A DNA stretch of 64,000 nt, from NCBI GenBank assembly GCA_903878275.1, contig CAIRHC010000011.1, forward strand, positions 19,116 to 83,115, written 5' to 3'. The notes under the pieces are model-generated. The model saw only the letters and a program-made list of their open reading frames with translations. It searched no databases and was not told the DNA's origin. Source of the stretch: Candidatus Vogelbacteria bacterium (GTDB lineage Bacteria > Patescibacteriota > Minisyncoccia > Phycocordibacterales > XYD1-FULL-46-19). The translations under genes were made by a program, and so were the position numbers. Of this stretch, positions 41,495 through 54,076 are shown piece by piece (positions within the stretch are counted from its first letter, which is position 1; each line of letters begins with the position of its first letter).

Positions 41495-43744
41495 CTACTT
41501 CGCATAAGCCTCGGCTTCATCAAATTTAATTGAGATCAAACGCGAGACTGAATCGGCGCCAATGGTCACACCATACAAAATGCCGGCGCGGGACATTGTC
41601 TCACGATTGTGCGTAATTAAAATCAGTTGGGAATATTTTGACAAATTTTCAATCATATCGGCATATTTCCTCGAGTTGGCTTCATCAAGTGCCGCATCGG
41701 TCTCGTCAAGAATCAAAAATGGTGGTGGATTGACTTGAGACATCGCAAAGAGGAGCGCGATCGAAGTGAGCGCTCTTTCACCACCCGAAAGCATCGCCAG
41801 ACCTTTGATTTTTTTGCGTGGCAAATTGACCGCCACTTCCACTCCACCGCCACTTTCATCTTCGGCGGTATCTGGCACGATTGCCTCTTCCAAAAGATCT
41901 TCGGTACTCGCCTCTTTTTTCTTGCGCGGTAAAACCACTTCCAGTCCCGCCGAACCACCGCCAAACAAAATATTAAAGAATTTCTGAAATTCGCTGTTTA
42001 TTTTTTTTATACCAGTGCTAAAGTCTTCATTTATTTTGACCCGCAATTCGTCCATCACTTCGAGCAAGGCTTTTTTACTTTCGGCTAAATCCAAAAGTTC
42101 TTTCGCCAAATGAGCGTCGCGAGCCGTCACTTCTTCGTGTTCACGCAAGACATCGCTACTTTCCACACCCATATCTTCAAGGCGAATTTTCGCTCGTTCG
42201 ATTTTTCGCCGGCGGTCTTCTTGGGCGTGCCGTTCTTCGATCAATGCCTCTTTGTCATCAATCGGCAAACCCGAATAATCCAAAATTTCTCGTCCGAGTA
42301 AAACACCAGCTTCGCCAAGTTCTTGCCGAAAATTTTCGCGTTCCAAAGTCAGTGTTTCTTTTCTGGCGAGTAAGGTTTGAATCGTCGCCGAAAGTTCGCT
42401 TCTTTTTACGCGCCATTCAAACAAAGCTTTTTCGGCTTCGCGAGTTTCTTCGGTATTGTGAGTCATCGCCAAACGCAAAGTCCCCGCTTTATTTTGCCAG
42501 TCTCTTTCTTCGTCTTCTAGTTTGGTTATTTCTTCCAAAACCTGAATTTTTTCGGCTTCAAATTTATTTATTTCGAGCGTCAATTCTTCGGCTTTTTCTT
42601 CGGCAATATTTTCTTGTTCATAATTTACCAGCAAAGAATCGACAAACAATCGCAAATTTTGCACCACGTGCTTGACCAACGACAAATCAAAGGCTCGTTC
42701 TAATTCGCCAACATAATTATTTAAAGATTCTTGCCAACCTTTTACTTCGTGCAAAGAAATCGTGACAGACGAGCTAACCGCTTTTGGCAATTTGGCTTGC
42801 TTGGTTTCGTATTCAATCAAACCCTCAAGGCGACCAAGCTTGCGTGACAGGTCATCGTAACGCCCACGCACCACCCTGATTTGCGATTCAATTTCACGTA
42901 ATTCGTTTTGTTCGGCAATCTGACGAGTGTCACGAGTAGCAGTTTTTTCCAACTCCACCAAACGCTCGTCAATCTCGTGCAATTTTTCTTTTGGCGAAAT
43001 CAGATCATCCGCCAACCGATTTTCCCAGTGTTTCAAATAAATTTCTTCGCGACACAGGTATTCTTTGTAAATATCCGACATTTCTTTCTTGAGCTCGTTG
43101 ATTTTTTCAATTTTTTCTACCTGCTTTTTTAAAAATTTTAAGTGCGGCGCAATTTCTCGCCTGATCGATTCGACTTGTTTGATATTTTCTTCAGTCTTCG
43201 CCAATTTCTTTTCACTTTCTTGCAATTTCCATTGATAAATTTTCAAGCCTAGCGCATCTTCGATCATCCCACGACGCTCTATGGCATTGGCATTTAAAAT
43301 TCTATCCGCTTCACCTTGACTGATGATATGATGACCAGATGAGCCGAGCGACACACTCGCCAAAAGCTCAATAATATCTTTCAAGCGCACCGCCGAACCA
43401 TTGATCGAATATTCATTAGTGCCTTCACGGAAAACTTCACGCGAGATAACGACTTCATCAAAATCTAAATTAAAATGCCGATCGTGGTTGTCGAAAGTCA
43501 CCGTCACGCTCGCTCGCGACAGTCGCCCAAGCGAACTAGAACCATTGAAAATTAAATCTTCACCACGCTTACCACGCAAAGATTTTAAAGATTGTTCACC
43601 GAGCACCCAACGGAAAGCTTCGGCGACGTTTGACTTGCCCGAACCATTTGGTCCGACGATAGCTACTACCGGCGAATCAAAAAACAAAGTCGCCTTGCGA
43701 CCAAAAGATTTAAAACCCGAAATTTCCAACTTTTTGAGAGTCAC
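41495..43744 (-). CDS. smc: SMC-family chromosome condensation ATPase, unusually short (749 aa) with no recognisable hinge
   Basis: Canonical SMC N-terminus (LEISGFKSFGRKATLFFDSPVVAIVGPNGSGKSNVAEAFRWVLGEQSLKSLRG) and C-terminal signature/Walker B/D-loop (LSGGERALTSIALLFAM...LILDETDAALDE...ITHNRETM); the middle is coiled-coil-like with no Gly-rich hinge motif. Confidence 0.75.
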   Translation of the reverse strand: MTLKKLEISGFKSFGRKATLFFDSPVVAIVGPNGSGKSNVAEAFRWVLGEQSLKSLRGKRGEDLIFNGSSSLGRLSRASVTVTFDNHDRHFNLDFDEVVISREVFREGTNEYSINGSAVRLKDIIELLASVSLGSSGHHIISQGEADRILNANAIERRGMIEDALGLKIYQWKLQESEKKLAKTEENIKQVESIRREIAPHLKFLKKQVEKIEKINELKKEMSDIYKEYLCREEIYLKHWENRLADDLISPKEKLHEIDERLVELEKTATRDTRQIAEQNELREIESQIRVVRGRYDDLSRKLGRLEGLIEYETKQAKLPKAVSSSVTISLHEVKGWQESLNNYVGELERAFDLSLVKHVVQNLRLFVDSLLVNYEQENIAEEKAEELTLEINKFEAEKIQVLEEITKLEDEERDWQNKAGTLRLAMTHNTEETREAEKALFEWRVKRSELSATIQTLLARKETLTLERENFRQELGEAGVLLGREILDYSGLPIDDKEALIEERHAQEDRRRKIERAKIRLEDMGVESSDVLREHEEVTARDAHLAKELLDLAESKKALLEVMDELRVKINEDFSTGIKKINSEFQKFFNILFGGGSAGLEVVLPRKKKEASTEDLLEEAIVPDTAEDESGGGVEVAVNLPRKKIKGLAMLSGGERALTSIALLFAMSQVNPPPFLILDETDAALDEANSRKYADMIENLSKYSQLILITHNRETMSRAGILYGVTIGADSVSRLISIKFDEAEAYAK

Positions 43745-43969: not shown

Positions 43970-44458
43970 ATGGAGATGGCGGAGTTTCGGAAAATGATAA
44001 GGTTCTCCGAGATTGTCGAGGTTCTCGCCAAAATCGAGAGAAAAGACAAGGTCGTACTAGCGGTACTTAAAAAATACCGTGAATGCTTCCGGGATCTTTC
44101 GTGGGTTCAGAGTTTGAGATTTGACTTTATTGGCTGTCCTGGAATTCGCAAGAATTCTCCAGAATATACCAAACTAGTCAAAGCCCAAAAAGCAGTAAAG
44201 AAGATCGCCGACGAAACACGCAAACTTCGAAATTGCCGACCGGAATTTCTCAAACTTTTGGCTAGCCTATTCGCACTCGAAAAGAGAGCGGACGAGCAAA
44301 TCAGCGAACACATAAGCCAAAATCCGGAAATGTCCGATAATGTAATCGAAATTATCCGAGAAGGAACAGGTAAACGGAACTATGACGGCTCACGGTTCAT
44401 CAACCAAAGCAATCGTCCGTTCCACCACCAAACAAACAAAAATAATGGTCGCCGCTAG
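43970..44458 (+). CDS. hypothetical protein (162 aa), no recognisable family
   Basis: ORF downstream of the consensus promoter; the composition is protein-like with Lys/Glu-rich helices. Confidence 0.45.
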   Translation: MEMAEFRKMIRFSEIVEVLAKIERKDKVVLAVLKKYRECFRDLSWVQSLRFDFIGCPGIRKNSPEYTKLVKAQKAVKKIADETRKLRNCRPEFLKLLASLFALEKRADEQISEHISQNPEMSDNVIEIIREGTGKRNYDGSRFINQSNRPFHHQTNKNNGRR

Positions 44459-44641
44459 ATAACACAAACGGCACCAAAAACGAACAACCTGACGTTTTAA
44501 CCATTTCGATCTTTGACATCGAGATGCAATACCAAAAAAAATAACTCGAGAAGTTTTTCGCACTTTGACTTCTCTTTCATTCTTAGATGTGTGTCTAGGC
44601 TTATGAGTCCAAAAGGACGAAATGAAGAAACCCGACAAAAA

Positions 44642-44673
44642 CTGCCCCGCTAAAAGCGGAGCAGTTTTTGTTT
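44642..44673 (+). terminator. intrinsic terminator (ctgccccgc/gcggagcag stem plus TTTTTGTTTG)
   Basis: Seen directly, about 185 nt downstream of the 43970 ORF stop. Confidence 0.5.
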
Positions 44674-44695
44674 GCTTTATTGAATTATCGTTCTT

Positions 44696-44937
44696 ACCAC
44701 CAAGTCGAAACCTTTTACTTTTTTAAAACTATTTTGTGCGATATTTTGTGCGATATCCAATCTCGCACAATCCTCCCGTCACCACCAAGGCGAGACTTGT
44801 TTCTGTTTAAAATCTCCGTCACCACCGTTCGCGGAGAATTAGCCTTTTGATGGCATTGAGAAAGGCAATTGAAAATTAAGAAGCTGAACAAAATCCTCAT
44901 CGCCACCAAGGCGAGACCTTTTACTTTTTTAAACCCT
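44696..44937 (+). repeat. three degenerate ~33-nt direct repeats (CCACCAAGGCGAGACCTTTTACTTTTTTAAAMC-like) with irregular spacing, plus a tandem 12-mer ttttgtgcgata x2
   Basis: Copies at about 44697-44731, 44782-44813 and 44903-44937; the motif core ccttttacttttttaaac recurs as its reverse complement ggtttaaaaaagtaaaagg at 45049-45067. Confidence 0.5.
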
Positions 44938-44946
44938 TGCGGAATT

Positions 44947-45011
44947 GTCGCCAGCATGGTTTTCGCCCTTTGTTTTTTTTGTTGCTTTAGCAACAAGGGC
45001 GAAATGGCGAC
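44947..45011 (+). ncRNA. nested stem-loop element (outer gtcgcca/tggcgac, middle ttcgccc/gggcgaa with a 10-nt U-rich bulge, inner ttgttgc/gcaacaa with a ttta loop) inside the non-coding island, candidate structured RNA
   Basis: Complementarities read directly; about 15 nt downstream is the short GC hairpin agcccc/ggggct plus T5 at 45028-45046. Confidence 0.25.
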
Positions 45012-45023
45012 TTGGAGCAGAGG

Positions 45024-45046
45024 AAAAAGCCCCGCTGGGGCTTTTT
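45024..45046. terminator. short bidirectional terminator-like hairpin (agcccc-gct-ggggct) with flanking A and T runs
   Basis: Seen directly; it would serve rnc on the minus strand and the non-coding island on the plus strand. Confidence 0.45.
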
Positions 45047-45079
45047 CTGTGGTTTAAAAAAGTAAAAGGTTGAGCCTCT

Positions 45080-45781
45080 CTATTTTTTCTCCCACTTCTT
45101 AACCGCCAAACCTTTTCGCGCCGCTTCTTGCTCGGCTTCTTGTTTTGACTTGCCTTCGCCGGTGGCAATTTGTTCTTTTTGTAAAAATAAACCGACGGTA
45201 AAAATCTTGTCGTGATCAGGACCACTGTCAGACACCAGCTTATAGCTCGGTGTAATATTCAATATTTCTTGAGCTTTTTTCTGAAAATCACTTTTGTAAT
45301 CTTCGCTCATTGATTTATTAATAATTTCTTCCGCCTTGGACAATAAAAATTTTTCAATAAAAACTCTCGCTGATTCATAACCTTGATCAAGATAAATCGC
45401 CCCGACAATTGCCTCGTACGCATTAGCTAAAATAATTTGGCGCGCTCGTCCGACATCTTTTGATTCGCCGCGCGACAAAAAAAGCATCTCGTTCACACCA
45501 AGCTCGCTTGCCAACGCGCTACAAGTATTGGCATTGACCAAAGCCGCCCGATACAAGGTGAGCTCCCCTTCCGGTTTGTCCTTATATTTATTAAATAAAA
45601 AATCAGTCGTCACTAATTCGAGCACAGCATCGCCTAAAAATTCCAAGCGCTCGTTGTGATCAAGCTCGCAATCTTTGTGTTCGTTCAAATAAGATCGATG
45701 AATAAAAGCCGTCTTCAACAGCTCTTTATTTTTAAAATGAAAACCAATTTTTTTCTCAAATTGTGATAAGTCTGCACCCAT
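45080..45781 (-). CDS. rnc: ribonuclease III
   Basis: RNase III signature ERLEFLGDAVLELVTTDFLF and a C-terminal dsRBD. Confidence 0.9.
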   Translation of the reverse strand: MGADLSQFEKKIGFHFKNKELLKTAFIHRSYLNEHKDCELDHNERLEFLGDAVLELVTTDFLFNKYKDKPEGELTLYRAALVNANTCSALASELGVNEMLFLSRGESKDVGRARQIILANAYEAIVGAIYLDQGYESARVFIEKFLLSKAEEIINKSMSEDYKSDFQKKAQEILNITPSYKLVSDSGPDHDKIFTVGLFLQKEQIATGEGKSKQEAEQEAARKGLAVKKWEKK

Positions 45782-45790
45782 ATTTAAATC

Positions 45791-46693
45791 TTACCGCGCC
45801 ATTAATTTCTTTATCGCCTTGGTAATAATCGGTAAAATGTCATCATACATTCGAAGCTCGGTCACCTCTTCAATCGCAAACCAACCGACATTGTCTAAGC
45901 CACTTTTTTCTTCCAACTTCAACGTTTTCTTAGTTTTACATTCCGCCAAAAAATAATTGACTTGTCGACGAATTTTACCTCTTTCCGGATCAGAAGCAAT
46001 ATATTCATTCAAACCCAGCTCACCTTTAATTTCTGAATCAACTGAAACTTCTTCTTTGACCTCACGAACGGTGCCAGCTTCGACTTCTTCGCCTACTTCG
46101 ATATGCCCTTTTGGCAAAGTCCAATAACCAAAGACATCGTGAACCAAAGCCAGAAAAATTTTATCTTTGTCGCGACAATAGACCACCGCCCCGCCGAGCT
46201 TTTCGACTGGCATATCTTCATAAGCGACATCAGGTTTGCGAATTTTGCGACCAGAGACTTGATCTTTGTCTGGCTCGCCAAGTTCTTTGTACACAGTGCC
46301 GAGCACGCCGTTGATAAAACGTCCGCTATTTTCTCCACCGAAAGTTTTACCGAGTTCAATGGCTTCGTTTATCGCCACTTTGGCTGGCACATCTTTGCGA
46401 TTACCAAAAATTAATTCGTACAAACCAAGACGCAAAATATTGCGATCAACCACTGCAATCTGTCCGATCGGCCAATCGGGTGCCGCCTTTTCGAGGATAG
46501 AATCAAGCTTATCTTTATGAGAAATAACACCGTCCACCAACTCATTTACAAAAGCCATTTCATCCAAACCTGGTCCAAATTCTTCCACCACCGCCTCGGT
46601 CACTTTATCGAGTTTTGAAGTATCGCCGTCGTTGAAATCCCAATCAAAGAGGATTTGCATTGCTAAACTCCGAGATAAATGCCGATTAGCCAT
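45791..46693 (-). CDS. nusB: NusB-like antitermination domain fused to a C-terminal Nudix hydrolase domain
   Basis: N-terminal ~135 aa match NusB (SRSLAMQILF...DRNILRLGLYEL...PAKVAINEAIELGKTFG...GRFINGVLG); C-terminal ~150 aa carry the Nudix box GHIEVGEEVEAGTVREVKEEVSV. Confidence 0.8.
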   Translation of the reverse strand: MANRHLSRSLAMQILFDWDFNDGDTSKLDKVTEAVVEEFGPGLDEMAFVNELVDGVISHKDKLDSILEKAAPDWPIGQIAVVDRNILRLGLYELIFGNRKDVPAKVAINEAIELGKTFGGENSGRFINGVLGTVYKELGEPDKDQVSGRKIRKPDVAYEDMPVEKLGGAVVYCRDKDKIFLALVHDVFGYWTLPKGHIEVGEEVEAGTVREVKEEVSVDSEIKGELGLNEYIASDPERGKIRRQVNYFLAECKTKKTLKLEEKSGLDNVGWFAIEEVTELRMYDDILPIITKAIKKLMAR

Positions 46694-47092: not shown

Positions 47093-47545
47093 TTAAGCAG
47101 CGCTCTTCTTGGGCAAAAGTGCCCGAACGTCTTCCCGGACGACCGGGTTGATTACTAGAAGCTGATTGCGAACTTTTTCCCAAAACTGCGGGGAAAGCGT
47201 CTGCCGACGCAATCGAATATTCGACATCGCGAAGCGAGCAACCTCCGGTCCAAGAGTCAAAAGGGTTAGAAGATCATCCTCCTCTATCTTTGGCAGTTTG
47301 CTCACCGTGAGTAAAAGTTGAATCTCGCCGAAGGATACTATCATCCGACGAATATCACCTTCGGATCGGCGCTTGCACTCTTTCCAAGCAAGTTCAATCG
47401 CTTCTTTTTGGTTGAGACACTTGGATAAGTGATACCCGTCAGGTATCCCATATCTTATCACCGCCACCAATTCTTCTAACGACGCCTTGGTGAAATCAAA
47501 ACATTTGGTTTTTTTCGCCTTGATTTCCGTACTTTTTTTCTTCAT
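47093..47545 (-). CDS. hypothetical protein (150 aa)
   Basis: ORF between rnhB and rpmF; no recognisable motif. Confidence 0.4.
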   Translation of the reverse strand: MKKKSTEIKAKKTKCFDFTKASLEELVAVIRYGIPDGYHLSKCLNQKEAIELAWKECKRRSEGDIRRMIVSFGEIQLLLTVSKLPKIEEDDLLTLLTLGPEVARFAMSNIRLRRQTLSPQFWEKVRNQLLVINPVVREDVRALLPKKSAA

Positions 47546-47607: not shown

Positions 47608-48285
47608 CTATAATTTAAAAAATTTAGCAAGATAGGTTTGGCGGTGGATATCGCAAGCCCCTTTTTTCGATAGACCGACATAATGCGCTTTGGTGCCATA
47701 ACCTTTATTTTTCTCCCAACCATAATCTGGGTACTTTTTAGCGAGTTTAATCATCTCGCGATCACGCAAGACTTTTGCCACGATTGAAGCCAACGAAATA
47801 ACCAATTCTTTTTCGTCACCTCTGATGATAGTTTGTTGGTTGGGGAAATTTTCGGGTGCTCGAAGACCACCGTCAAGCAAAACTAGGCACTCTTTTTCTG
47901 AAGACCCTTCTCGCCGACCACGAGGCTTAGCCTCGTGGTCGGCGAAATTCCCTAAACTTTTTTTTATCCCTAATTTTATCGCTGGATTTATCCCTTGCTT
48001 ATCAATAATTTTATGGCTGATTAAAGACGCGCCGAAAAATGCCCCGCATTTTTCGGCACGAGTTTTTATCTCCCCAAACCAAAAATCACGCTGTCTGGCC
48101 GACAATTTTTTTGAATCTCGCCCAATCGGATAATCCGCAAAAACTTTCTCGAGCTTTCCCGCCGACACGGGCCAAACAAAAATCCCCACCGAAACCGGTC
48201 CAGCCAGTGATCCCCGCCCCGCCTCATCAATGCCTATTAGATATTTATTTTTTTCTGTTATAATTCCTCTATGTCTTTTGTCCAT
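47608..48285 (-). CDS. rnhB: ribonuclease HII
   Basis: LIGIDEAGRGSLAGPVSVG (the DEAGRG catalytic motif); the start was trimmed to the Met of MDKRHRG because the long ORF-track N-terminus overlaps dnaE and lacks homology. Confidence 0.85.
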   Translation of the reverse strand: MDKRHRGIITEKNKYLIGIDEAGRGSLAGPVSVGIFVWPVSAGKLEKVFADYPIGRDSKKLSARQRDFWFGEIKTRAEKCGAFFGASLISHKIIDKQGINPAIKLGIKKSLGNFADHEAKPRGRREGSSEKECLVLLDGGLRAPENFPNQQTIIRGDEKELVISLASIVAKVLRDREMIKLAKKYPDYGWEKNKGYGTKAHYVGLSKKGACDIHRQTYLAKFFKL

Positions 48286-51200
48286 CTTCATAATCACACA
48301 CATTATAGTCTGCTTGACGGTCTGATCAAAATCCCCCAACTCGTCAAAAAAGCGAAAGAATACGGAATGCCCGCCCTCGCCATCACCGACCATGGCAATA
48401 TGTACGGCGCCATTCAATTTTATAAAAAATGCCTCGATGCCGACATCAAACCAATCATCGGAATGGAAGCCTATGTCGCCGTCCGCAGTCGTTTCAACAA
48501 AGAACCGCATCTCGATGCCAAACGTTATCACCTCACGCTTCTAGCAAAAAATAATACCGGCTATCGCAACTTAATTAAAATTACCACCAAAGCCAACCTC
48601 GAAGGTTATTATTACAAACCCCGCATTGACCGCGAATTATTAGAAGAATACCACGAAGGAATTATTTGTTTGTCTGGTTGTATGGGCGGAGAATTGTCGC
48701 GTCTGCTTTTAAACAACGACGAAGCCGGCGCCGAAAAACTTGTCAGTGATTATCAAAAAATTTTTGGCGCGGAAAATTATTTCATCGAAATAATGCATCA
48801 TCCAAAAATTGAACGCCAAGCCGAACTAACAAAAAATACCATCAAGCTCGCGAAAAAATTAAATGTTCCGCTCGTCGCCACTCAAGACACACACTATTTA
48901 AACAAAGACGACGCTCGCGCCCACCACACATTACTTGCTATTCAAACCGGCAACGATGTCACCGAAGTAAAAGGTGTGACCAATATGGAAGAAGATTTTT
49001 CTTTCACTAGTCCCGAAGAAATGGCGGAATATTTTAAAGACACACCCGAAGCCATCACAAACACGCTCAAAGTCGCCGAGATGTGTGACATCACCTTAGA
49101 GCTTGGTCACTGGCATTTTCCCAAATACGATTTACCGGCTGGTATATCTTACGAAGACGAACTCCGCCGATTAGCCGAAGAAGGTCTAGCAAAATATCTC
49201 GAAACAAATCCGGATCGAAAAGATGAAGCACGAAAAAGAGTCGATTATGAACTCGAAGTCATCGTCAAAAAAGGTTATAGCCCGTATTTTTTGGTCGTGT
49301 CCGACTTACTTCATTACGCCAGAAGCATTGGCATTTTCACCAACACTCGAGGTTCCGCCGCCGGTTCTTTTGTCTCGTTTATTATTGGCATCACGACAGT
49401 CGATCCACTTTATTACGAATTGCCGTTTGAACGATTTTTAAATGCCGATCGTCCTTCACCGCCCGATATTGATATGGATTATGCCGACAAACGCCGTGAC
49501 GAAATTATTGAATACGCCCGCAAAAAATATGGCGACAACAACGTCGCGCAGATTGGAACTTTTGGTTCGATGATGGCACGCGGGGCGGTGCTTGACGTCG
49601 CTCGCGCGCTCGGTTTTCCGTATGTGCTCGGCGATCAGATTTCTAAATTGATTCCGATGGGCGCTCAAGGTTTTCCGATGACCATCAACCGCGCGATGGA
49701 AATGGTGCCAGAGTTGAAAAAAATGTACGACGACGGAGAAGATCCAAGGGTCAAAGAAATTATTGATCTCGCCAAAAAAATTGAAGGTTGCGCCCGACAC
49801 ATTTCTGTCCACGCTGCAGGTGTCGTCATTTCTCCGACCGACATCACCGATTTTACGCCAGTGCAATTTGATCCCAAAGGTGGCAAGACCATTACCCAAT
49901 TTGAAATGCACGCTGTCGAAGATGCCGGCTTATTAAAATACGACTTCCTCGGTATTCGCAACCTTTCCATTTTGGAAGATGCGGTAAAAATTGTCCGCAA
50001 AGTTTATGGTGTGACCGTTGATATCGAAAAAATCCCGCTCGACGATCCGAAAACTTTTGCGATGTTAGCACGAGGCGAAACGATCGGACTCTTTCAACTA
50101 AATGGTGCCGGTATGACGCGCTGGCTCAAAGAACTCAAGCCGACCACCATTTTCGATATCAACGCGATGGTCGCTCTTTATCGTCCCGGACCAATGGAAG
50201 CGATTCCGGAATACATCAAACGCAAACACGAGCCACGCTTAGTAAAATTTCTTGATCCCCGACTTGAACCAATACTGAAACACTCTTTCGGCGTGCTGAC
50301 CTATCAAGATGACGTAATGTTGATCGCGATTCATCTCGCTGGTTACACTTGGACCGAAGCGGATAAATTGCGAAAAGCGATGGGTAAAAAAATTCCCACC
50401 GAAATGCAAGCGCAAAAAGATAAGTTGCTAAAAGGTTTGGTGCTCGGCGGACTTAATGAGAAAAAAGCGCTCGAGCTTTGGTCGCAAATTGAGCCATTCG
50501 CCGCTTACGGCTTCAACAAAGCGCACGCCGCTAGTTATGGTCGGGTCGCTTATCAGACTTCATATTTGAAAGCCAATTATCCGTCCGAATATATGACTGC
50601 CGTTTTATCTGCCGAATCGGGTGACACCGAAAAAATTGCTGAAGTCATTCAGGAATGTAAAAGAATTGATCTGCCGGTCTTGCCACCAGACATCAACGAA
50701 AGCTTTGGCGATTTTTCGGTCATCAAAGGTTTGGGTCATACCGATTTAAGTGAAGAAGCCCACAAAATGTCCCAAAAAAATACCGACGGAAAAGATCGCA
50801 TTCGTTTTGGTCTTTATACGATAAAAAATCTCGGCACCGAAATTGCGGATTATATTGTCGATGAACGAAAAGCCAATGGAATTTATTTAAATCTGGTTGA
50901 TTTTCTCACGCGAATAAAACACAAAAACTTAAATAAAAAATCACTCGAATCGCTGGTCAAAGCCGGCGCTCTCGACAGCCTCGGCGAAGACCGCGGGAAA
51001 TTAATTTTCAACACCGAAGAAATGCTCGCTTTCAATCGTCAAGAATTAAACGCCAACACTAACCAGAGTTCCCTTTTTGGTCTGATGACCGAAGCCCCGG
51101 TTTTGGCAAGTCTAAAATTAAAAGATGGTCCAGCCATCGAACCGCTGGTCAAACTAGCGTGGGAAAAAGAATTACTCGGTCTTTATGTCTCTGGTCACCC

Positions 51201-51516
51201 GCTCGACAATCATCGCGAAAAATTTGAGAAAGAACAAAACACTATAAAATACCAGCGCGGGTTGCAAGAAGGTGGTCTCGCCGTCTCCGGCGGAATTATC
51301 AGCGAAGTCAAAATAATTATCACCAAGAAAAATACTCAAATGGCATTTTTGAAATTATTTGATTTTACCGACAGCATCGAATGCGTGGTCTTTTCCGAAA
51401 CCTACGAAAAATACAAAAATATTTTAGTGGTGGATAAATGTGTTGCCGTCAAAGGCAAAATAAGTCACAGAAATGGTGAGCCGAGTATTATTGTGGAGGG
51501 GGTTAAGGAACTTTAG
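48271..51516 (+). CDS. dnaE: DNA polymerase III alpha subunit
   Basis: N-terminal PHP domain (FVHLHNHTHYSLLDG), the polymerase core and a C-terminal OB fold; 1081 aa. Confidence 0.95.
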   Translation: MSFVHLHNHTHYSLLDGLIKIPQLVKKAKEYGMPALAITDHGNMYGAIQFYKKCLDADIKPIIGMEAYVAVRSRFNKEPHLDAKRYHLTLLAKNNTGYRNLIKITTKANLEGYYYKPRIDRELLEEYHEGIICLSGCMGGELSRLLLNNDEAGAEKLVSDYQKIFGAENYFIEIMHHPKIERQAELTKNTIKLAKKLNVPLVATQDTHYLNKDDARAHHTLLAIQTGNDVTEVKGVTNMEEDFSFTSPEEMAEYFKDTPEAITNTLKVAEMCDITLELGHWHFPKYDLPAGISYEDELRRLAEEGLAKYLETNPDRKDEARKRVDYELEVIVKKGYSPYFLVVSDLLHYARSIGIFTNTRGSAAGSFVSFIIGITTVDPLYYELPFERFLNADRPSPPDIDMDYADKRRDEIIEYARKKYGDNNVAQIGTFGSMMARGAVLDVARALGFPYVLGDQISKLIPMGAQGFPMTINRAMEMVPELKKMYDDGEDPRVKEIIDLAKKIEGCARHISVHAAGVVISPTDITDFTPVQFDPKGGKTITQFEMHAVEDAGLLKYDFLGIRNLSILEDAVKIVRKVYGVTVDIEKIPLDDPKTFAMLARGETIGLFQLNGAGMTRWLKELKPTTIFDINAMVALYRPGPMEAIPEYIKRKHEPRLVKFLDPRLEPILKHSFGVLTYQDDVMLIAIHLAGYTWTEADKLRKAMGKKIPTEMQAQKDKLLKGLVLGGLNEKKALELWSQIEPFAAYGFNKAHAASYGRVAYQTSYLKANYPSEYMTAVLSAESGDTEKIAEVIQECKRIDLPVLPPDINESFGDFSVIKGLGHTDLSEEAHKMSQKNTDGKDRIRFGLYTIKNLGTEIADYIVDERKANGIYLNLVDFLTRIKHKNLNKKSLESLVKAGALDSLGEDRGKLIFNTEEMLAFNRQELNANTNQSSLFGLMTEAPVLASLKLKDGPAIEPLVKLAWEKELLGLYVSGHPLDNHREKFEKEQNTIKYQRGLQEGGLAVSGGIISEVKIIITKKNTQMAFLKLFDFTDSIECVVFSETYEKYKNILVVDKCVAVKGKISHRNGEPSIIVEGVKEL

Positions 51517-51576: not shown

Positions 51577-53328
51577 TTATAGAACCTCGAAAGTCAAGTT
51601 TGTGTTTATCAATGGATTATTATCAGAATTTGACAAAATAGATATCCCACTCATTTTATATTTTCCTGGTGTAGTTCTTATCGCAATATTAAAACTAAAT
51701 TCTTGTTCAGCTCCTGGTAAAATTGTCATATATTCATAAAGTGAGGAATGCAACCAAATAAAATCTTCAGGGTGGAATGCGTAAGATCTAGGTATTGCAT
51801 TAACAACTAAAGGAGCCGTACCGATATTTTTTATTTTGAAATTTATGCTTGATTGATAGCCACTATTTATCTTTCCGAGATCAAAATTAGTTTTACTTAC
51901 TTGAATATTACTAGAGCTCGGAGTAACCAAATATCTAAGTTTAAGAGTTGGATCGCCAATCCATGTATTATAAAGAGATATTTTATTTCGCATTGCTTCA
52001 GCAAAATTAACACCCCTAGACAACAAGAACATATATTTAGAATCTTCTTCGTTGTAATTAAAATTTGCTACGACCGCAGTATCAGCCAAAGCCAGTAAAC
52101 CATCACCATCCGAAAAAACATAAGAAGCTGCCATATAATCAGCCTGATCAAATTGACCCAAAAGACACGATTCAAGTTGGTAAAACAGAGCTTTGGGCTT
52201 CATATCAAAGATACTATTGCTCGTGATATTATATTCATGTAAATTGCTTGATCCATGGTTATTTAATCTTACCCATTCATATTTTTTAGACAACTCGGTA
52301 AGATACCGAGAATCAATTTCTAAAGGATTAGTGTCAGATTTAGCTATTAATAACGAAGAGTTTGATAACGAGTAAAGAGTCCCAGGAAATACCCCCTTAT
52401 TCATTTCATCGTTAATATAATTATCAATTTGAGAGTCATCTAACTCACTACCTTTTGCTACGGTATTATAGTAAAGAAACTTTTTATCGTAAGTCAATTG
52501 ACCCGTACGATATCTATGATTTTTATCAAAATATTTTATCAAGGCAGTAATTTGATCAGTCTTGTTGTTAGGTTTTATTCTTGCAACCCAAGTTTTTTCA
52601 TACCAACTTGGACCAAATGCGCATGTTTCAAAGTCATAAAAACCATACTGATTATTATAAAGACAATTATTATCAATGTCCGCATAAAAATAATCAGATA
52701 TAAATTTGAGTCCAGGATCCCCAGCTCTAGCAAATTCAACATAAGGAAGATCTCCTATCAAAAAAATCCCATATAATCCATCTTTATACTCCGAAATTTT
52801 ATTCTTAATTACTGAAGGAGAACCCCATTCTCCACTCAACAAAGTTACATTGCCACCAGTATCTTTTTTTAGATCGTTGATAAAGGTACCGATACTGTTT
52901 TTTATAGAATTATACAATGCACTATCGACAAATATGAGCGTGTTTTTACGAACACAGACCCCACCACCACACAATATCGGGGCAAAACCATCTGAAGTAC
53001 TCGGATCAACTTTGTAGCCACCGGCGTTGTAAAATGTGACCACACGAGAAAGTTGAGTTAAACTTATCTTTTTTGTATCGTAAAAATTTGTTTTATAGGC
53101 ATTTAATTCGGCTAATTCTATTTTATAATTTTTGTCAGTATCAGCTGGATGATAAACAGGATTTGAAACAACAACAATAGCACCGAGTGTTTTTCCTTTT
53201 AATTGTTCGACGATAACCGAAAGTCTATTTATGATAGAGGTTAGACCATCTAAGGTACTAGCTTTTGAAACTTGTGGCAAAACCAAAAGACCTAAGACAA
53301 AAATTGCGATAACTAAATATTTTTTCAT
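51577..53328 (-). CDS. large hypothetical secreted protein (583 aa)
   Basis: Signal peptide MKKYLVIAIFVLGLLVLPQVSKA; no recognisable catalytic motif. Confidence 0.45.
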   Translation of the reverse strand: MKKYLVIAIFVLGLLVLPQVSKASTLDGLTSIINRLSVIVEQLKGKTLGAIVVVSNPVYHPADTDKNYKIELAELNAYKTNFYDTKKISLTQLSRVVTFYNAGGYKVDPSTSDGFAPILCGGGVCVRKNTLIFVDSALYNSIKNSIGTFINDLKKDTGGNVTLLSGEWGSPSVIKNKISEYKDGLYGIFLIGDLPYVEFARAGDPGLKFISDYFYADIDNNCLYNNQYGFYDFETCAFGPSWYEKTWVARIKPNNKTDQITALIKYFDKNHRYRTGQLTYDKKFLYYNTVAKGSELDDSQIDNYINDEMNKGVFPGTLYSLSNSSLLIAKSDTNPLEIDSRYLTELSKKYEWVRLNNHGSSNLHEYNITSNSIFDMKPKALFYQLESCLLGQFDQADYMAASYVFSDGDGLLALADTAVVANFNYNEEDSKYMFLLSRGVNFAEAMRNKISLYNTWIGDPTLKLRYLVTPSSSNIQVSKTNFDLGKINSGYQSSINFKIKNIGTAPLVVNAIPRSYAFHPEDFIWLHSSLYEYMTILPGAEQEFSFNIAIRTTPGKYKMSGISILSNSDNNPLINTNLTFEVL

Positions 53329-53577: not shown

Positions 53578-53621
53578 CCGCCCCGACAAAATGCGCTAGC
53601 GCATTTTGTCGGGGCGGTTTT
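53578..53621 (+). terminator. very strong intrinsic terminator-like hairpin (19-bp perfect stem ccgccccgacaaaatgcgc/gcgcattttgtcggggcgg, 2-nt loop, UUUU) 45 nt upstream of the mazF-like start
   Basis: Seen directly. Confidence 0.6.
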
Positions 53622-53665
53622 GCTTACAGCTAAAACATTTAAAAAATGTTCGCCCAAGAAAAAAA

Positions 53666-54076
53666 ATGGAAAAAGATTATCAAAACTGGAATCAAATTAA
53701 AATCAATCTAAATAAAGAACCGGATGAAACTCGGCTGTTTTTTCATGAAAGAGAAATTTGGTATTGTCACTTAGGTAAAAATGTTGGTTTTGAGCAAGAC
53801 GGCAAAGGAAGTGATTTTTTAAGACCGATTATTGTTTACCGAAAATTTAATAATGAAATTTTCTGGGGAATACCTTTGACTAAAGCTACCAAACAAAACA
53901 AAGGGAAAAGCGAAAGATACTATTTCAGTTTCTCTTTTTTGCCAAATATTACGAGCTTAGCGATATTATCGCAAATTCGCTTAATTGACAACAAGAGATT
54001 AGCTCGGCATATGGGAGCGATCGAAGAAAAAGATTTTGAAGAATTAAACAAAAAATTCAAGGACTTATTGCCTTGA
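53666..54076 (+). CDS. MazF/PemK-family endoribonuclease toxin (no adjacent antitoxin ORF)
   Basis: REIWYCHLGKNVGFEQDGKGSDFLRPIIVY...GIPLT...SQIRLIDNKRL aligns by eye with the MazF core (IW..F.P..G.EQ.G.RP..V...P.T...Q...ID..RL); the start was taken at the internal Met of MEKDYQNW. Confidence 0.7.
   Translation: MEKDYQNWNQIKINLNKEPDETRLFFHEREIWYCHLGKNVGFEQDGKGSDFLRPIIVYRKFNNEIFWGIPLTKATKQNKGKSERYYFSFSFLPNITSLAILSQIRLIDNKRLARHMGAIEEKDFEELNKKFKDLLP

Follow-up and report, generated by a model that had tools for sequence, protein, structure and literature searches.

NusB is universal and well studied, and every description so far, to our knowledge, is of a small protein that stands alone. CFIm25/NUDT21 is a Nudix-fold protein with a non-catalytic role in RNA processing. 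Non-enzymatic Nudix proteins form a recognised class (PMC5389931). SuhB, an enzyme-fold subunit of the Escherichia coli rRNA antitermination complex, binds the boxA-boxC linker and is needed to integrate NusB/E into the complex, and its catalytic activity is dispensable (PMC6614801). Bacterial RNA can carry NpnN caps, which the Nudix enzyme RppH takes off (PMC7044304, PMC8833179); its substrates include ApnA as well as Np4 caps (PMC8833179). NUDT2 trims PPP-RNA (PMC8616924). Here, we analysed a gene that encodes a NusB and a Nudix domain in one polypeptide. A literature search covering NusB, Nudix, Patescibacteria/CPR/Parcubacteria, antitermination and a review of the Nudix clan, with few subscription journals included, retrieved no description of such a NusB-Nudix fusion. 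As far as this search goes, the architecture is uncharacterised; the first-pass annotation of this DNA knew of no description either.

Results

A single gene for both domains

The complete nusB-Nudix fusion gene is located on the minus strand at positions 45791..46693 of the window, i.e. the whole 64-kb stretch of DNA that was analysed. The ORF listing and the translation gave 300 codons plus stop, running from ATG to the stop codon with zero internal stops, and a Pfam scan placed both domains in this one frame (NusB, aa 7-136, E = 1.1e-34; NUDIX, aa 170-284, E = 1.6e-14), in agreement with the first-pass reading of one two-domain protein. That reading had named a sequencing error joining two separate genes as one way in which it could be refuted; no stop or frameshift was found, and the same ORF is present in many independent assemblies. 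The best 120 database matches to the fusion all have lengths of 288-317 aa and each contain both Pfam domains, again from many independent assemblies. Thousands of proteins, drawn from independent assemblies at NCBI, JGI, ENA and Logan, share a continuous ORF of ~300 aa, and of 80 species-representative loci, 79 gave one tblastn HSP that runs across the two domains. The nusB-Nudix fusion is a genuine single gene, real and ancient.

Distribution and gene order

The taxonomic spread, which had been left to be checked, turned out to be wide within one class: the fusion is encoded by at least 541 species-representative genomes, and every named one belongs to the Paceibacteria/Parcubacteria. Fusion and linker motif are conserved down to ~28-35% identity across this whole bacterial class, whose members are tiny and uncultured. 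In databases, the fusion is annotated as plain NusB.

The gene rpmF for ribosomal protein L32 (46743..46973, minus strand, PF01783) lies 49 nt upstream of the fusion, and rnc for RNase III with its dsRBD (45080..45781, minus strand, PF14622, PF00636 and PF00035) lies 9 nt past the fusion stop. Both had been named as neighbours before, and this operon-like arrangement is conserved: rpmF is found upstream on the same strand at 75 of 75 loci and rnc downstream on the same strand at 77 of 77 loci, with a median spacer of ~21 nt. The order rpmF...rnc-smc resembles the ancestral gene order, so history, and not function, may in part explain why rnc lies next to the fusion. A promoter/terminator scan yielded counts no higher than those of shuffled sequence; as a result, operon boundaries were drawn from spacing alone. 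An Rfam scan of the 64-kb window identified three tRNAs and no rRNA, and neither an rRNA operon nor a boxA was detected in the window.

NusB domain and linker

The NusB domain (aa 1-137; 46283..46693, minus strand) was identified by profile, sequence and fold matches. Scores were 120.1 bits for PF01029 (threshold 23.1) and 126.9 bits for the NCBIfam equivalog TIGR01951 nusB (cut-off 88.35), and PDB NusB sequences matched the fusion at 1.6e-20. All NusB hallmark motifs quoted in the first-pass annotation are present, together with the complete Nudix box quoted there. In the AF2 model, seven helices spanning aa 2-138 form the all-helical NusB fold at a pLDDT of ~85-95. Foldseek gave TMt values of 0.86-0.87 against Aquifex NusB (3r2d and 4eya, named at 0.87), which in this match is part of a NusB-NusE-RNA complex, and of 0.83 against Mycobacterium tuberculosis NusB. 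By phmmer alignment, F126 corresponds to AaF122, D83 to AaE81 and F16 to EcY18, and conservation of these residues in the fusion family ranges from at least 98% to invariant. In the characterised proteins, AaF122 stacks on boxA U8, AaE81 is the boxA-contact acid and EcY18 is the NusE-interface aromatic (PMC3177189). No second NusB was found in the 64-kb window or in the 80 loci examined. The fusion carries a bona fide NusB domain.

The inter-domain linker (aa 138-165; 46199..46282, minus strand), the sequence of which was verified, contains the motif G139-E140-P141-x-K143. Together with E137, the last NusB residue, the motif reads E-x-G-E-P-x-K, and a basic patch follows at aa 149-152. E137, G139, E140, P141 and K143 are each at least 95% conserved in two homologue samples. 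The pLDDT of the linker is low, with values <50 over aa 141-152; the pTM of the model is 0.55, and AF2 predicted no inter-domain interface. As modelled, the linker is a flexible or disordered yet conserved tether.

Affiliation of the Nudix domain

The Nudix domain (aa 166-300; 45794..46198, minus strand) scored 54.5 bits with PF00293 (gathering threshold 21.1). The model of this half shows an alpha/beta/alpha sandwich at a pLDDT of ~90, to which hundreds of Nudix structures were matched by Foldseek. The Nudix box in the translation, GHIEVGEEVEAGTVREVKEEVSV (aa 196-218; 46040..46108, minus strand; catalytic residues E202, R210, E211, E214 and E215), fits GX5EX7REUXEEXGU with G, E, RE and EE all present and Ser for the penultimate Gly as the single departure. 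The best PDB sequence match was the Ap6A hydrolase Ndx1 (3e-13), followed by CT771 and by the Ap4A hydrolases from Caenorhabditis elegans, Aquifex and human (1vc8, 4ilq, 1kt9, 3i7u and 3u53). The best fold matches were 3i7u (TMt 0.87) and 1vc8 (0.86), then MutT1/Rv2985, which is described as a 'Nudix diadenosine polyphosphatase', CT771, 1ktg and NUDT2 (PDB ids of the fold matches: 3i7u, 1vc8, 9cxx, 4mpo, 1ktg and 4ijx). Y231 is located 13 residues past the box, aligns with the Ndx1 Tyr of 'TRYV' and is invariant in 313 sequences; a conserved Tyr shortly after the Nudix box is said to have been described by Dunn et al. in 1999 as a marker of the ApnA-hydrolase subfamily. By sequence and predicted fold, the nearest relatives of the Nudix half are diadenosine polyphosphate (ApnA) hydrolases, which assigns it to the ApnA-hydrolase type.

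The likeness to RppH and NudC that had been drawn earlier did not hold. The RppH models NF001936 and NF001938 scored 28.5 bits (cut-off 118, covering only aa 176-220) and 19.3 bits (cut-off 116), respectively, and the NudC model NF001299 scored 25.8 bits (cut-off 158). In the fold search, NudC appeared at ranks 44-47 only with a TMt of ~0.38, and both the SQPWPFPxS motif and the zinc-binding cysteine cluster of NudC are absent from the window fusion protein, which has two Cys in total. With scores this far below the family cut-offs, membership in RppH or NudC was rejected; the ApnA hydrolases are closer in both sequence and fold. What RppH/NudC and the fusion have in common is the Nudix fold and box, and since RppH acts on ApnA and Np4 caps, its chemistry could overlap with that of the fusion's Nudix domain.

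Conservation of the catalytic box

The essential Nudix glutamates, whose absence the first-pass annotation had named as refuting its reading, are intact in the window fusion protein but lost in part of the family. A canonical box was found in 202 of 313 close homologues (35% degenerate) and in 73 of 120 sequences of a second sample, giving a canonical range of 61-65% for close homologues of the fusion. Among 34 representatives of divergent fusion lineages, 5 were canonical and 29 degenerate (~85%), versus 22 canonical boxes in 27 stand-alone relatives (Fisher p = 2.7e-7 for 22/27 versus 5/34). The non-canonical sequences among these 27 look like fusion fragments.

Of 79 substitutions at E211, 67 are to Lys or Arg. 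E215 is invariant (313/313), and residual or altered catalysis could accordingly persist in 'degenerate' members. In one subclade, 26 of 29 boxes are degenerate, and losses are also scattered over other clusters and dominate in the divergent lineages. A single-clade origin of the degenerate boxes was therefore rejected, and so was alignment noise, as the box strings were read directly. A decaying pseudo-domain was likewise rejected because degenerate-box members conserve the remaining Nudix domain as well as canonical ones (conservation outside the box 0.695 versus 0.701, p = 0.24). Neither sample shows any variation at H185, D186, W191, K195, N229, Y231, P236, G239, W271 or Y283, and K240 is nearly invariant (193/194 and 112/120). 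Conservation of D186, W191, K195, Y231, Y247, W271 and Y283 extends to the stand-alone relatives, and some of the pocket residues common to fusions and stand-alone proteins may be structural rather than ligand-contacting. Since many relatives lack the catalytic residues, the property conserved family-wide is probably binding, of a nucleotide or an RNA end, rather than cutting.

Discussion

We favour, with a probability of roughly 45%, the interpretation that the protein is a bona fide NusB bearing an ApnA-descended Nudix domain on a flexible tether, with binding in the pocket conserved and hydrolysis optional. The NusB half would perform the ordinary NusB task, i.e. it would pair with ribosomal protein S10 to bind boxA in the leader of nascent rRNA and ride RNA polymerase within the antitermination and rRNA-folding complex. 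The stem that RNase III processes would also be presented by this complex, in keeping with the invariant rnc directly downstream of the fusion. The Nudix half, derived from ApnA (diadenosine/dinucleoside polyphosphate) hydrolases, would bring a nucleoside-polyphosphate-binding pocket to the boxA/NusB complex. Its ligand, we infer, could be either a nucleotide of the NpnN type in free form or the end of the transcript that bears boxA, be it 5'-triphosphorylated or Npn-capped, and action at RNA 5' ends might then affect antitermination or processing. With all its catalytic residues intact, the window fusion protein probably retains hydrolysis and cleaves the bound pyrophosphate linkage; it would thereby decap or trim the RNA end or degrade NpnN locally. 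Replacement of the metal-binding Glu211, mostly by Lys/Arg, in about a third of the close relatives and in most divergent lineages would turn the Nudix domain into a non-catalytic reader.

An extended form of this interpretation, which we regard as unlikely, takes the Nudix domain as a module of the rRNA antitermination complex that both reads and erases RNA 5' ends, tethered via NusB at boxA. The domain would catch hold of the nascent rRNA leader by its 5'-triphosphate or Npn-capped end; members with an intact box would convert this end to a monophosphate, so that the leader could be removed once RNase III has cleaved, and E211K/R members would only hold the end and help to loop the leader for formation of the RNase III stem. 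If so, this would be the first case of bacterial 5'-end recognition physically wired into the Nus-factor elongation complex.

An obligate catalytic role, in which NusB delivers an RppH- or NudC-like pyrophosphohydrolase or decapping enzyme to nascent transcripts to trigger processing or decay with RNase III, appears doubtful. The box intact in the window fusion protein and in 61-65% of the close homologues is consistent with it, as are the invariant linkage to rnc and the ability of Nudix enzymes of the ApnA-hydrolase class to act on RNA 5' ends (PMC8616924, PMC8833179). Against this stand the low RppH and NudC model scores and the repeated, independent loss of catalytic residues (35% among the close homologues, 29 of 34 among the divergent lineages). 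In these members, the box is lost, but the domain is kept and equally well conserved outside the box, which is incompatible with catalysis as the reason why the fusion is kept. The co-transcriptional RNA 5'-end processing suggested by the first-pass annotation may still apply to the window fusion protein but cannot be what the family as a whole conserves, and the idea that the fusion is kept to deliver a catalytic activity is weakened by these sequence comparisons.

Fusion merely for co-expression in a minimal genome, with a housekeeping hydrolase of free nucleotides (Ap4A-Ap6A, or a MutT1-like 8-oxo-GTP sanitiser) uncoupled from antitermination, is quite unlikely. Two independent activities would fit the flexible linker and the lack of a predicted inter-domain interface, and the nearest characterised relatives do hydrolyse free ApnA or 8-oxo-(d)GTP. 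Such a hydrolase should, however, keep its catalytic residues, which the stand-alone proteins do (22/27) and the fusions frequently do not. Moreover, the conservation of fusion and linker motif class-wide at ~28-35% identity speaks for the physical linkage as such being under selection.

Similarly low odds apply to a purely structural or RNA-motif-binding module that has no small-molecule or 5'-end ligand, acting either as a SuhB-like scaffold in the Paceibacterial rRNA antitermination complex or as a CFIm25-like recogniser of leader RNA near boxA. Catalysis is dispensable in many fusion lineages as it is in SuhB (PMC6614801), non-enzymatic Nudix proteins exist (PMC5389931), the non-catalytic Nudix domain of NrtR ranked 17th among the fold matches, and the linker motif, conserved though disordered, resembles a docking peptide. 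Most family members, the window fusion protein included, nevertheless have a complete metal-binding box, E215 is invariant, and the change of E211 to Lys/Arg suggests that a phosphate contact was kept and the pocket not abandoned.

That adjacent nusB and Nudix genes were joined by a sequencing or assembly error has a negligible probability and was rejected, given thousands of homologues with the same architecture in independent assemblies, the single HSP in 79 of 80 species-representative genomes and the conserved sequence of the linker itself.

Throughout a major class of the Candidate Phyla Radiation, NusB appears to have given way to a protein of two domains, encoded by at least 541 of the species-level genomes sampled, and labelling as plain 'NusB' by annotation pipelines has rendered the Nudix domain invisible in databases. 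Should the Nudix domain, at the antitermination complex, bind or process NpnN alarmones or the 5' ends of RNA, two separately studied fields would be linked, one concerned with how Nus factors govern the transcription and maturation of rRNA, the other with non-canonical 5' capping and alarmone signalling. That catalytic residues were lost repeatedly, and only in the fusions, while the pocket was kept represents a clean natural experiment in the transition from an enzyme to a reader domain, which is directly testable with recombinant proteins despite the organisms being uncultured.

Comparison with known systems

The NusB half shares the all-helical fold of NusB from E. coli, Aquifex aeolicus and M. 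tuberculosis, passes TIGR01951 and keeps the boxA/NusE contact residues. Unlike the characterised NusB proteins (~140 aa), the fusion has a 160-aa C-terminal extension consisting of the conserved linker and the Nudix domain. The position equivalent to E. coli NusB D118 is Asn in the fusion; the E. coli D118N variant (nusB101) most likely has a raised boxA affinity (PMC3177189).

In RsmB/Sun, an N-terminal NusB-like RNA-binding domain is combined with a 16S rRNA m5C methyltransferase, a precedent for a NusB-fold domain at the N-terminus that targets a larger protein connected with rRNA. The partner domain of RsmB is, however, a SAM methyltransferase and its NusB-like domain no antitermination factor. 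RsmB models matched aa 35-145 of the fusion far below their cut-off (55.6 versus 319 bits), whereas the fusion passes the true NusB equivalog cut-off.

With the ApnA-hydrolase clade, comprising Thermus Ndx1 (Ap6A), Aquifex aq_158 and Chlamydia CT771 (both Ap4A), the C. elegans enzyme, human NUDT2 and the N-terminal domain of mycobacterial MutT1/Rv2985, the Nudix half shares sequence (E = 3e-13 to 1e-4), fold (TMt 0.70-0.87), the W-x-x-P/S-K-G-H lead-in to the box and a C-terminal helix that contains an aromatic residue; a conserved Tyr at a distance of 13 residues from the box is shared with Ndx1. The Nudix half differs from this clade in being fused to NusB, and the catalytic Glu/Arg residues are often substituted in the fusion family, which the sampled stand-alone relatives do not show.

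SuhB (part of the rrnTAC of E. coli), NrtR (a Nudix domain with a wHTH) and CFIm25/NUDT21 are enzyme folds in transcription or RNA-processing complexes in which catalysis is dispensable or lost. None of them is homologous to the NusB-Nudix architecture, and, in contrast to them, many fusion members still look catalytically competent.

A single gene encodes an orthodox NusB and a Nudix domain

The fusion gene (45791..46693, minus strand; ATG start, 300 codons) was free of internal stops and coded for both a NusB domain (aa 7-136, Pfam E = 1.1e-34) and a NUDIX domain (aa 170-284, Pfam E = 1.6e-14), as the first-pass annotation had claimed. The protein scored 126.9 bits against TIGR01951, the NusB equivalog model of NCBIfam (curated cut-off 88.35 bits). 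In the ORF translation, the Nudix box GHIEVGEEVEAGTVREVKEEVSV (46040..46108, minus strand) fitted GX5EX7REUXEEXGU at all catalytic positions, with Ser for the penultimate Gly as the sole deviation; the description of the box as complete thus holds for this protein.

Sequence matches of the NusB half to solved NusB structures gave E values of 1.6e-20 to 2.4e-13, and its predicted structure superposed on Aquifex NusB of the NusB-NusE-RNA complexes (TMt 0.87). Aquifex NusB F122 stacks on boxA U8, and roles are described for E81 and for the NusE-interface aromatic, Y18 in E. coli (PMC3177189). The aligned equivalents F126, D83 and F16 were invariant or nearly so across the fusion family, and the basic N-terminus MANRHLSRS was conserved to at least 95%. 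Judged by sequence and model, this half is an orthodox, true NusB. A second, stand-alone nusB was not found in the window or in 80 related loci fetched from a collection with one genome per species.

The AlphaFold2 model contained two confident domains (mean pLDDT 86) and a tether disordered at aa 141-152 (pLDDT below 50); a pTM of 0.55 indicated no fixed inter-domain orientation. The linker motif E137-x-G139-E140-P141-x-K143 was essentially invariant; a basic patch (aa 149-152) comes next, then the conserved Pro162. Being both conserved and predicted to be disordered, the linker peptide is suggestive of a docking or RNA-contact element.

Spread, age and gene neighborhood of the fusion

A protein search scored 8000 candidates and yielded 7997 matches. 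Each of the best 120 was 288-317 aa long with both Pfam domains, and their only names were 'transcription antitermination factor NusB' or 'N utilization substance protein B'. An artificial joining of two genes is practically excluded, since the same ~300-aa two-domain protein recurs in independent NCBI, JGI, ENA and Logan assemblies and a single tblastn HSP covered both domains in 79 of the 80 loci. Relatives were encoded in at least 541 genomes of the one-genome-per-species collection. Among the matches listed, the closest was from Candidatus Vogelbacteria (86% identity), and the other named sources were Taylor-, Nomura-, Kaiser-, Campbell-, Yonath- and Moranbacteria, Paceibacter and Paceibacterota/Parcubacteria. 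Many TPA MAGs encoding the fusion (e.g. related loci L003, L005 and L011) are labeled 'uncultured Candidatus Saccharibacteria'. Their fusions have Paceibacteria-type synteny and share 55-67% identity with the Vogelbacteria proteins, for which reason the label is taken as a probably generic or incorrect placeholder. With the Nudix domain alone as query against 1.84 billion cluster representatives, full-length NusB-Nudix proteins turned up at identities as low as about 28-35%, which implies that the fusion is old.

The literature searched held no description of a NusB-Nudix protein, and NusB was absent from the Nudix clan review, in line with the first-pass annotation, which knew of none. The sequences are public in thousands, annotated only as NusB; both families are known, and what lacks a description is their combination in one protein and the way it has moved away from catalysis.

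The reported neighbors were found on the same strand: rpmF (L32; 46743..46973, minus strand) lies 49 nt upstream, and rnc (RNase III plus dsRBD; 45080..45781, minus strand) starts 9 nt past the fusion stop codon. The fusion is conserved across Paceibacteria together with rnc, which followed it on the same strand in all 77 loci with room downstream (median spacer about 21 nt); rpmF was upstream in 75/75, and smc was usually next after rnc. Promoter and terminator pattern scans performed no better than shuffled controls, so we infer co-transcription of rpmF, fusion and rnc from spacing only. The order rpmF-(plsX-fab-acpP)-rnc-smc resembles an ancestral one, and the linkage to rnc may be partly historical rather than functional.

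The window is a housekeeping stretch of about 40% GC (rpoB, rpoC, trmD, khpA, rpsP, RNase R, smc, rnc, fusion, rpmF, rnhB, dnaE, thrS, gyrB, pheST, tsf, rpsB). Its smc homologue (41495..43744, minus strand) encodes only 749 aa, against about 1,180 aa in typical bacterial SMC proteins, and has a canonical Walker A motif at the N-terminus and canonical head motifs at the C-terminus; smc tblastn matches in related loci were of similar length (about 2.2 kb), so the shortened coiled coil appears to be the clade norm. The rnc-to-smc gap, tens of nucleotides in many related loci, holds an insertion here that includes a plus-strand ORF (43970..44458, 162 aa) without Pfam match. The roughly 600 nt downstream of rnc (44459..45079) had neither a convincing ORF nor an Rfam match and contained a strong, GC-rich 17-bp hairpin with a T-rich tail (44635..44671, minus strand). 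Between rnhB and rpmF, a 150-aa ORF (47093..47545, minus strand) without Pfam match had tblastn matches in 0/80 related loci and, on this sequence comparison, is a lineage-specific gene inside an otherwise conserved cluster. The mechanically called rnhB (47608..48531, minus strand; 307 aa, GTG start) carries its RNase HII domain only at aa 99-300, and its N-terminal extension overlaps the start of the divergent dnaE (48271..51516, plus strand); translation probably begins at an internal Met, around aa 82-95. Between dnaE and thrS, an ORF with a PemK/MazF-like toxin domain (53606..54076, plus strand; E = 1.9e-08) adjoins a 583-aa ORF without Pfam match (51577..53328, minus strand); the pair possibly represents a toxin-antitoxin or mobile insertion.

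The Nudix half resembles ApnA hydrolases

The best PDB sequence match of the Nudix half was the Thermus Ndx1 Ap6A hydrolase (3.2e-13), followed by Chlamydia CT771 and the C. elegans, Aquifex and human NUDT2 Ap4A hydrolases. Foldseek retrieved the same set (Aquifex 3i7u, TMt 0.87; Ndx1, 0.86) and mycobacterial MutT1/Rv2985, deposited as 'Nudix diadenosine polyphosphatase'. From sequence and predicted fold, the domain is assigned to the ApnA-hydrolase type. The proposed likeness to RppH or NudC was not borne out, as scores fell far under the cut-offs (RppH models, 28.5 vs 118 bits; NudC model, 25.8 vs 158 bits). By analogy, the general idea of RNA 5'-end processing is not absurd, because NUDT2, of the same clade, trims PPP-RNA to P-RNA (PMC8616924), and bacterial RNA carries NpnN caps that Nudix and non-Nudix enzymes take off (PMC7044304, PMC8833179, PMC13010140). 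Other fusion proteins (P0264, P0195, P0265, P0155) contained related Nudix domains of the ApnA type whose boxes are canonical, the partners being Metallophos (ApaH-type phosphoesterase superfamily), sigma70_r4 plus DnaA_C HTH, a GNAT acetyltransferase and a second Nudix in tandem.

Catalytic residues are lost repeatedly

Across 313 close homologues (no two identical, all with 52% identity or more), G196, E202, R210, E211, E214 and E215 were all intact in 202 (65%); separate samples gave canonical boxes in 127-130/194 (the range reflecting two ways of reading the box) and 73/120. The loss of Nudix glutamates considered in the first-pass annotation does not apply to the window protein, whose box is intact, but the box is not canonical in 35% of close homologues. 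One subclade was degenerate in 26/29 members (e.g. GKIPEGDIRAGTVAKVKEEMGI), and further losses were scattered over other clusters, a pattern suggesting that the box was lost several times independently. Among divergent 50%-identity cluster representatives, the box was canonical in 5/34 full-length fusions vs 22/27 stand-alone-length relatives (Fisher's exact p = 2.7e-7); the five non-canonical relatives of stand-alone length bear the fusion-type signature and are probably pieces of fusions. A decaying domain was ruled out, since degenerate and canonical members were equally close to the family consensus outside the box (0.695 vs 0.701, p = 0.24). Invariant in both samples were H185, D186, F188, G189, W191, T192, K195, G196, E215, N229, Y231, P236, G239, V245, G265, L266, W271, L280 and Y283, with K240 nearly so (193/194 and 112/120). 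At E211, the metal-ligand Glu of 'RE' in the box, 67 of 79 substitutions were to Lys or Arg, as would be expected if the domain still touched phosphate but had abandoned metal-dependent hydrolysis. Catalysis, as read from these alignments, is dispensable in the family.

Proposed function

We tentatively favor, at a probability of about 0.45, a composite role in which the NusB half and S10 would place the fusion at the boxA of nascent rRNA leaders, where the Nudix pocket would bind a nucleoside-polyphosphate moiety, hydrolysis being optional. The ligand could be either NpnN in free form or the transcript's own ppp/Npn 5' end. Given the intact box, hydrolysis probably persists in the window genome; family-wide, ligand binding by the Nudix half is probably the property under selection. 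An obligate-catalytic decapping enzyme, as first proposed, would accord with NUDT2 activity on PPP-RNA and is unlikely in a family with so many degenerate boxes. Somewhat less likely still are an uncoupled housekeeping hydrolase, which the ApnA-type fold would suit and the same box losses would not, and, to an equal degree, a ligand-free scaffold or RNA-motif binder, compatible with dispensable catalysis and less easily reconciled with the Lys/Arg preference at E211.

For the composite role, SuhB provides a useful parallel as an enzyme whose catalysis is not required in rRNA antitermination. This inositol monophosphatase belongs to the E. coli rRNA antitermination complex as an integral subunit, binds leader RNA beside boxA and is needed to integrate NusB/E, its enzymatic activity being dispensable there (PMC6614801). 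Nudix proteins without enzymatic role are likewise a recognized class (PMC5389931).
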